Assembly: GCF_003334335.1 (NCBI RefSeq)
Contig: NZ_QOWQ01000070.1
Direction: 5' to 3' (one strand)
DNA from: Escherichia coli
GTDB lineage: Bacteria > Pseudomonadota > Gammaproteobacteria > Enterobacterales > Enterobacteriaceae
Length of the DNA: 7,938 nucleotides
In this document: piece by piece, positions 4,244 to 4,524 of the stretch
How positions within the stretch are numbered: the first letter of the stretch is position 1
Layout of the letters: every line of letters begins with the position of its first letter
Translations under genes and position numbers: made by a program
The notes under the pieces: generated by a model
Databases searched by the model: none
What the model saw: only the letters and a program-made list of their open reading frames with translations
Told to the model about the DNA's origin: nothing

Positions 4244-4524
4244 GAGATTGTGGTGCTTTTTGTGGGAGTCATCCACTTACGCACTTTGTTTTGCCATGCC
4301 AGCAGTTAGCTTCTGCTGTAAAACTATTCATGCAGCAAACCTGCACTTCACCACAATGGTTAGCATACTTTTCCTGATTAAGATTTTGCCAAATATGCTA
4401 GCCATTGTTTCATGTATTGGACCTCCTTACTTTTTATTAAAGAGATCCAATATTCACTACTCTGTCCGTATCTCTACTCAGGCATCAGCCTTCTTCGTTA
4501 TCGTATACAGACGAGCGATGAATT

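Follow-up and report, generated by a model that had tools for sequence, protein, structure and literature searches.

Does a consensus ribosome binding site followed by a start codon and an in-frame stop mark a gene when it lies in the 3′ region of another gene? The question is raised by a 7,938-nt stretch of Escherichia coli DNA (the window) that shows 100% identity to the Qin cryptic prophage of E. coli K-12 MG1655. Downstream of the cold-shock gene cspB, the Shine-Dalgarno (SD) sequence AGGAGG precedes an 11-codon open reading frame (ORF), hereafter the mini-ORF, and the original prediction had proposed that this arrangement could mark a micro-protein, a regulatory upstream ORF (uORF) or a small RNA (sRNA) derived from the 3′ untranslated region (UTR). 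Our analysis indicates that the AGGAGG-ATG mini-ORF is quite likely an accidental by-product of a modular, conserved 3′-UTR RNA consisting of a protective end formed by two hairpins (HpA and HpB), a linker that acts as a processing zone, and an independent distal domain. Positions given below are those of the window (NC_000913.3 position − 1,636,814).

The SD-ATG motif in the cspB 3′ region

The cspB stop codon occupies positions 4527-4525 (−). The gap between it and the terminator, reported as about 280 nt in the original prediction, measured 281 nt (4524-4244) and is unusually long, and RefSeq annotates nothing between cspB and ynfU. Direct reading placed AGGAGG at 4427-4422 (−) and the 8-nt spacer at 4421-4414, exactly as first described, and confirmed the mini-ORF, ATG AAA CAA TGG CTA GCA TAT TTG GCA AAA TCT TAA, at 4413-4378 (−), with the predicted product MKQWLAYLAKS. 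The accompanying statement that a consensus SD with ideal spacing is uncommon by chance did not hold: the motif is real, but it is not statistically remarkable in 7.9 kb, because AGGAGG-N4-10-ATG was seen once in the window compared to 0.29 times expected, and 47 of 200 dinucleotide shuffles contained at least one. AGGAGG alone is expected 2.0 times per window.

Predicted architecture of the RNA

Folding of the 316 nt from the stop codon through the terminator gave a minimum free energy (MFE) of −106.3 kcal/mol, versus −71.6 ± 5.1 kcal/mol for dinucleotide shuffles (z = −6.8). From 5′ to 3′, the predicted modules are HpA, HpB, a CA-rich single-stranded linker, a third hairpin (HpC), a four-way-junction core in which helix P1 closes the junction around P2, P3 and P4, and the terminator (Table 1). 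The segment containing HpA and HpB (4405-4524) yielded a folding z of −7.06. When 4410-4455 was folded separately, HpB had a free energy of −18.3 kcal/mol (z = −6.18) and accounted for 67% of the ensemble. The AGGAGG sequence is a fully paired part of the 3′ arm of HpB, the ATG of the mini-ORF falls in the linker between HpB and HpC, and codons 4-8 (3′ half) form the 5′ arm of HpC.

The loop sequence of HpA is kept in the Qin, SSU5-like and chromosomal enterobacterial versions of the region. The strands of its internal loop, CGAUAACGA(A/U)GA and CCUGAGUAG at 4475-4500 (−), resemble box C/D (k-turn) or loop-E/sarcin-ricin motifs, and an Rfam scan of the Klebsiella aerogenes homolog returned weak C/D-box snoRNA matches. 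In the core, the P3 loop (AAGCUAA) and the J3/4 segment (AAAGUGCGUAAG) are invariant. A candidate pseudoknot between J2/3 and the P4 loop was paired in 86% of cells, versus 22-47% when the partners were slid, with weak, non-significant covariation. The terminator consists of AAACCCGCTCAGGCGGGTTT and a T-run (4243-4224, −), and thus contains both the GC-rich hairpin and the U-tract of an intrinsic terminator. A promoter scan predicted no sigma70-like promoter on the minus strand inside the region.

The element accompanies mobile csp genes

By BLAST, the distal half of the region matched csp 3′ sequence at 77-82% identity on SSU5-like phage-plasmids of about 100 kb from E. coli and Klebsiella, those from E. 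coli being of the pLF82/phage Cyrano type. Further matches were to phage PHB10 and to a conjugative plasmid of K. aerogenes. Homologs were then collected with an exact pattern, GAAGCTAAC-N8-32-AAAGTGCGTAAG, made from two invariant stretches. This pattern was recovered in more than 120 viral contigs and in 16 enterobacterial genomes (Enterobacter, Kluyvera, Kosakonia, Superficieibacter, Escherichia sp. and Phytobacter, the last with three copies); two matches in a metagenome-assembled genome of Campylobacteraceae were set aside as obvious chance. All copies with enough flanking sequence, 125 of 125 viral and 16 of 16 genomic, had a same-strand csp ORF ending 129-238 nt upstream of the motif. 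Several mobile settings unrelated to one another are represented, namely Qin-like (lambdoid) prophages, SSU5-like phage-plasmids, PHB10-like phages and the K. aerogenes conjugative plasmid. As a same-strand csp gene precedes every one of these copies even though the adjacent Csp proteins have diverged to about 65% identity, we conclude that a mobile csp cassette has the element as its constant 3′ partner. A divergent cspF-like gene often accompanies this cassette, for example in Qin and PHB10, and the chromosomal cspA and cspG genes are without the 3′ element.

Conservation differs between the modules. Nucleotide identity of the core equals or exceeds that of the csp coding sequence (CDS), for example 90% versus 72% between the PHB10-like version and locus L068, whereas identity of the proximal UTR is much lower (43-76%). 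SSU5-like elements carry, at the position of HpB, a 12-bp hairpin of unrelated sequence (AAUUAGCAUGG/CCAUGCUAAUU) with no SD, and the linker is kept across relatives as a CA-rich stretch (...ACAAC(A)GG). In a sister lineage of the Qin type (L012, L025, L038 and L138, the last from Escherichia sp. E1V33), a deletion of about 82 nt removed the 3′ arm of HpB with the SD, the linker, the ATG and ORF, and all of HpC; HpA, the core and the terminator are intact.

Several individual copies had unusual features. In Enterobacter sp. JUb54 (L137, about 950-1050, −), CCTGAAAG has undergone an approximately nine-fold tandem expansion within J2/3, and the rest of the element is intact. Three near-identical csp-RNA-ynfN cassettes in one Phytobacter ursingii genome (L140, L141 and L142) are consistent with carriage on multiple prophages. 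Divergent copies from viral contigs with YnfN-like genes (L186, L178 and L179) scored 90, 84 and 40 bits with the covariance model described below and had P2, P3 or P4 broken; these are either decaying elements or members of a more distant subfamily that would deepen the covariation.

Covariation supports the structure of HpC and the core

An alignment of 24 sequences (A5) covering HpC and the core was evaluated for 38 base pairs. Canonical pairs occupied 94.1% of the pair cells, and two-sided (compensatory) changes were found in 10 of the 38 pairs, with at least one such pair in HpC and in each core helix. The 12 pairs of HpC were formed in 88% of cells. Examples of compensation are AUUGUGGUG/CACCACAAU to GAUGUGAUG/CAUCACxUC in P1, GCAG/CUGC to GCGG/CCGC in P2, and GUGG/CCAC to GAGG/CCUC in P4. 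In a shuffle control, none of 500 shuffles reached the observed number of paired cells, the number of cells with two-sided change or the covariation score; the number of pairs with two-sided change was reached in 2 of 500 and that of further pair types in 7 of 500. Sliding the partners by 1-3 columns reduced pairing to 28-54%. The csp-sense strand also paired better than the antisense strand (94.1% versus 88.2%), since G·U cells (75) exceed A·C mismatches (21).

Compensatory change extends to the proximal hairpins. RNAalifold analysis of 17 homologs identified it in 8 of 10 pairs of the HpA basal stem, which flanks a GA-rich internal loop. Natural variants of HpB also preserve pairing: AGGAGA turns a U·G pair into U-A, and a C-to-U change at 4444 keeps its pair.

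A covariance model built from the alignment (R1) matched the window only at 4411-4240 (−), with 141 bits and E = 3.5e-33. The same model, run with filters off, detected no second copy downstream of cspI and upstream of ynfN (best score 2.8 bits). Searches of the whole window, and of 4200-4540 separately, against the 4227 models of Rfam release 15 gave nothing at the gathering threshold in this region; the best sub-threshold scores were Trp_leader (21.7 versus a threshold of 41), isrK (18.3 versus 50) and FourU (16.6 versus 60), all driven by the terminator or by a hairpin. The K. aerogenes homolog likewise had no above-threshold Rfam match. Despite the cloverleaf-like topology of the core, ARAGORN found no tRNA or tmRNA in the region, and our literature search for a cspB 3′ UTR element or sRNA found nothing relevant.

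The Rfam cspA thermoregulator model did match the 5′ UTR and CDS of cspB (4509-4901, −; 158.8 bits) and of cspI (1614-1999, −; 112.8 bits). Because these matches end at or just past the coding sequences, the 3′ element is separate from the cspA thermoregulator family.

We conclude that the csp-linked RNA is probably a new family of a known kind, that is, a conserved structured UTR RNA. Tentatively, it could also represent an undescribed class of functional structured RNA, with members on the phages, phage-plasmids and plasmids of enterobacteria and in K-12, a claim that we put at somewhat less than even.

Table 1. Features of the cspB 3′ region and the basis on which each was assigned
Feature	Position	Strand	Basis or remark
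cspB CDS, 71 aa; gene owning the studied 3′ UTR	4525-4740	−	ORF list; RefSeq b1557
HpA, long hairpin with conserved asymmetric internal loop CGAUAACGAWGA / CCUGAGUAG and tip GGCUGAUGCC	4452-4523	−	MFE and centroid fold
HpB, 13-15-bp hairpin UUGGAUCUCUUUA-loop-UAAGGAGGUCCAA	4416-4451	−	Fold of 4410-4455
Mini-ORF MKQWLAYLAKS*, 11 codons	4378-4413	−	Linker and HpC 5′ arm
HpC, hairpin GGYYAGCAUAUUU...AARUAUGCURACC	4358-4403	−	RNAalifold; pair counts in 24 sequences
Four-way-junction core, P1-P4	4247-4357	−	Alignment A5, covariation, covariance model
Core helices	P1 4357-4349 with 4255-4247; P2 4346-4330; P3 4318-4300; P4 4276-4262	−	
Intrinsic terminator, bidirectional	4218-4243	− (also ends the + strand ynfU transcript)	Terminator scan

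Along the minus strand, quuQ/ydfT is followed by cspB, the 281-nt region, the intrinsic terminator and essQ. The plus-strand neighbours are ynfU (3991-4161) and cspF.

RNA ends in vivo

Published Term-seq data identify a minus-strand 3′ end of the class 'orphan' at 1641226/1641224, which corresponds to window positions 4412/4410 (Adams et al. 2021, PMC7815308, Supplementary file 1). The end at 1641226 (−) had 604,404 reads in LB at OD 0.4, and the end at 1641224 (−) had 1,233,565 reads in LB at OD 2.0 and 2,464,295 in M63 (PMC7815308); these counts are comparable to those of abundant sRNA ends in the same table, such as sroA. Position 4412 is the U of the AUG and 4410 the first base following this codon; they lie 5-7 nt past the HpB stem. 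As there is no U-tract at this location, the end does not result from intrinsic termination. Its position fits either an exonuclease stopped by a stable hairpin or a cut within the single-stranded linker, and we infer one of these origins. With both, the main RNA species contains the SD but not the ORF.

The terminator itself was seen to be used in vivo by the plus strand only. A plus-strand 3′ end at 1641060 (window 4246; PMC7815308) indicates that ynfU uses it in the other direction.

At 37°C, cspB is poorly expressed, and its transcription is largely terminated by Rho in the 5′ UTR and ORF (PMC7815308). Adams et al. also list a minus-strand 3′ end at 1641634 (window about 4820) in the cspB 5′ UTR and a Rho-dependent readthrough site at 1641537 (window about 4723) early in the ORF (PMC7815308), from which it follows that most cspB transcription at this temperature stops before the gene. 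Coordinates in a Cappable-seq supplement of transcription start sites did not match in either assembly numbering, such that this dataset is uninformative for the region.

The mini-ORF is lineage restricted

Outside the Qin lineage, whose members are at least 95% identical, both the SD and the ATG are absent; neither occurs in the SSU5-like, PHB10-like or chromosomal homologs, and the ATG aligns with AUC in the SSU5-like and PHB10-like elements. Conservation of these two signals in related prophages had been suggested as a check of the original prediction, and the outcome argues against a coding function. The Qin-type set consisted of 17 unique full-length sequences representing 69 copies. Within this set all five substitutions in the mini-ORF were non-synonymous (L5P in most copies, A9V, K10I, S11T and S11P) and none was synonymous, a pattern that, in a small sample, gives no sign of constraint and is compatible with neutrality. 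The SD also varied, to AGGAGA and AGGCGG. Judged from the sequences, the variation in the SD and mini-ORF looks like the result of selection on helices rather than on the peptide or on ribosome binding.

Taken together, the pairing of the SD in HpB, the RNA end at the ATG, the restriction of SD and ATG to one lineage, the deletion of the ORF in a sister lineage and the five non-synonymous substitutions out of five speak against the micro-protein proposed originally, and the same evidence leaves the regulatory uORF unsupported. The third proposal, a 3′ UTR-derived sRNA, stood in part: a discrete and abundant RNA species does exist and the region is conserved, but the abundant end is at HpB and not at the terminator.

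Deposited annotation includes other reading frames that overlap the RNA. One 'hypothetical protein' from PHB10 (QBJ00788; L007, 2450-2575, +) is in the sense orientation, and another from PhiR63_1 (XSB43282; L009, 2496-2735, −) is antisense. The window contains a 97-aa plus-strand ORF (4242-4535), which we dismissed as it lies antisense to an RNA that is structured and transcribed in the sense direction, and as the plus-strand transcript ends at 4246. All three are probably gene-caller artefacts.

A model for the cspB 3′ region

The most likely explanation for these results is that the mini-ORF arose by chance on a 3′-UTR RNA with separable modules. Transcripts of cspB that reach the 3′ region would be cut in the linker, or trimmed from the 3′ side until HpB blocks the nuclease. 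The stable cspB RNA would then end in the HpA-HpB double hairpin and be protected from 3′ exonucleases. The distal part, HpC-core-terminator, is predicted to be an independently folding domain under strong selection, and might be liberated by processing as a 5′-monophosphorylated RNA. Relatives that have no terminator carry the HpC-core domain between csp and a YnfN-like gene. The likely role of the element is therefore twofold, namely definition and stabilization of the 3′ end of csp mRNA, together with provision of a conserved RNA domain.

Several points weigh against this model. The search pattern fixed 21 core positions, as it demanded 21 exact nucleotides; the P3 loop and J3/4 therefore look more invariant than they otherwise would, and the diversity recovered is limited. 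The effective sequence number in the covariance model was 1.33, such that the covariation is consistent while few independent lineages contribute to it. The nuclease origin of the 4412/4410 end is deduced from its position. The Term-seq data, in three conditions that were all at 37°C, contain no minus-strand 3′ end at the terminator (near 1641030), which makes a stable distal RNA in K-12 hypothetical. Within the Qin lineage, the ATG, the stop and the ORF length are invariant, although this is weak evidence because the lineage is at most 5% diverged. Finally, the mini-ORF may be translated from read-through transcripts.

Alternative explanations

One alternative is that the distal half (HpC-core-terminator, about 190 nt, roughly 4410-4218) is freed by an endonuclease acting in the CA-rich linker and functions as a trans-acting 3′ UTR-derived RNA, either by base pairing of AAGCUAA or AAAGUGCGUAAG or by sequestration of a protein. 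This explanation overlaps in part with the one preferred above. If the abundant 4412/4410 end is made by endonuclease cleavage, it implies a downstream fragment, and the absence of an internal promoter would fit such a processing origin. In three independent lineages (Qin, SSU5-like elements and L032/Superficieibacter), the core runs directly into an intrinsic terminator with no gene downstream, and invariant unpaired stretches that might serve as seeds are present; their invariance is, however, partly imposed by the search pattern. Counting further against a trans-acting RNA are the missing minus-strand end at the terminator in all three Term-seq conditions and a table derived from Hfq RIL-seq, in which the cspB-essQ region is absent while cspF.cspB.IGR and the cspB CDS are listed. 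On balance we consider this alternative unlikely.

A second alternative is that the core is an ancestral intercistronic leader of a YnfN-like cold-shock gene, acting as a thermosensor, a Csp-responsive attenuator or a riboswitch, and that the Qin version is a relic in which the terminator replaced the gene. The core lacks a downstream terminator in most chromosomal copies as well as in PHB10-like phages and the K. aerogenes plasmid. In that plasmid, the PHB10-like phages, Enterobacter, Kluyvera, Kosakonia and Phytobacter, the element is followed by a same-strand, conserved ORF for a 75-aa YnfN-like protein, which starts only 54-78 nt downstream in one subgroup. Among 80 viral loci with a YnfN-like gene, 31 have the element upstream. 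The spacing between element and gene nevertheless ranges from 54 to about 640 nt, no alternative base pairing that involves the ynfN ribosome binding site was identified, and YnfN-like genes of the Qin cspI type are without the element. Moreover, since Qin, SSU5-like elements and L032 keep a highly conserved core without ynfN, the function seems to be linked to the csp transcript and not solely to ynfN. A leader origin is thus doubtful, about as much so as the trans-acting RNA.

A minus-strand ORF of the window at 1139-1369 (ATG at 1369) encodes 76 aa (MKKIIVFFNSEP...) that align end to end with the 75-aa YnfN-like proteins. In the RefSeq annotation of K-12, ynfN comprises just the last 51 aa of this ORF, and in a PGAP copy the gene is called frameshifted. 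The long ynfN start lies 5 nt past the ynfR stop, an arrangement suggestive of coupling and of an annotation truncated at the N-terminus.

Genuine translation of the mini-ORF, as a micro-protein or as a regulatory ORF that remodels HpC and the core after FourU-like melting of HpB exposes the SD, is very improbable: a consensus SD at 8-nt spacing, an ATG and in-frame stop invariant in 69 Qin-type copies, a U-rich strand that pairs with the SD through two G·U pairs among others, and a weak FourU match of 16.6 bits favor it, but this score is far below the gathering score of 60, HpB folds at −18.3 kcal/mol, the major RNA 3′ end separates the ORF from its SD, no other lineage keeps the SD and ATG, L012-type variants have lost the ORF, the substitutions are non-synonymous in five of five cases including L5P in most copies, 0.29 such motifs per window are expected by chance, and no gene precedes the terminator for a uORF to regulate.

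Comparison with known systems

Stabilizing stem-loops at the 3′ ends of bacterial mRNAs, such as repetitive extragenic palindromic (REP) elements and terminator hairpins, block PNPase and RNase II. The cspB region resembles them in the very high stability of HpA-HpB and in its abundant end 5-7 nt past the HpB stem, the spacing expected for exonuclease arrest. Unlike REP or terminator stabilizers, HpA-HpB is one module of a larger multi-domain RNA, and its sequence is replaceable while its position is conserved.

Processed 3′ UTR-derived sRNAs are exemplified by CpxQ, SdhX, GlnZ and NarS. As in these cases, the csp-linked region lies between a stop codon and an intrinsic terminator, has no internal promoter and contains conserved unpaired stretches, and its hairpin-flanked single-stranded linker is a candidate cleavage site. 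In contrast to them, it shows neither an Hfq RIL-seq signal nor a detected 3′ end at the terminator. It is also much larger than sRNAs composed of a seed and a terminator, being built around a four-way junction, and many relatives have no terminator and run into a gene.

Like the cspA thermoregulator (RF01766), the element is a structured RNA attached to cspA-family genes; unlike that family, which spans 5′ UTR, CDS and a short terminator and whose match ends at 4509, it lies in the 3′ region and shows no similarity to it. HpB recalls the FourU thermometer (RF01795) in pairing AGGAGG with the U/C-rich sequence CUCUUU through pairs that include G·U. With 13-15 bp it is far more stable than known thermometers, and it differs from them also in its 3′ UTR location and in having no conserved ORF behind it.

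Small ORFs of Qin that were validated by ribosome profiling include ynfU, ynfQ, ynfR and ynfS (Weaver et al. 2019, bioRxiv 10.1101/511675). The main text of this work does not mention the mini-ORF, and the main text of the PIRT-seq study names ynfU only. The mini-ORF resembles these validated genes in being short, in residing in the same prophage and in having a strong SD. It differs from them in that it has no RefSeq annotation, is not conserved and is structurally occluded.

Implications

A textbook combination of SD, ATG and stop should not be called a gene at this locus, where the purine-rich 'SD' is one strand of a helix. Instead, E. coli K-12 appears to hold an unannotated, conserved structured RNA of about 300 nt, with an abundant processed 3′ end, on a mobile cold-shock gene. 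The csp-linked RNA might bind a protein or ligand, might switch the fate of csp (and ynfN) mRNA in response to cold or to Csp proteins, or might be released as a stable RNA. If the core does bind a factor or sense temperature or Csp, a 3′-UTR layer would be added to cold-shock regulation, which has so far been explained via 5′ UTRs, and this would also explain why csp cassettes are carried as a unit by mobile elements.

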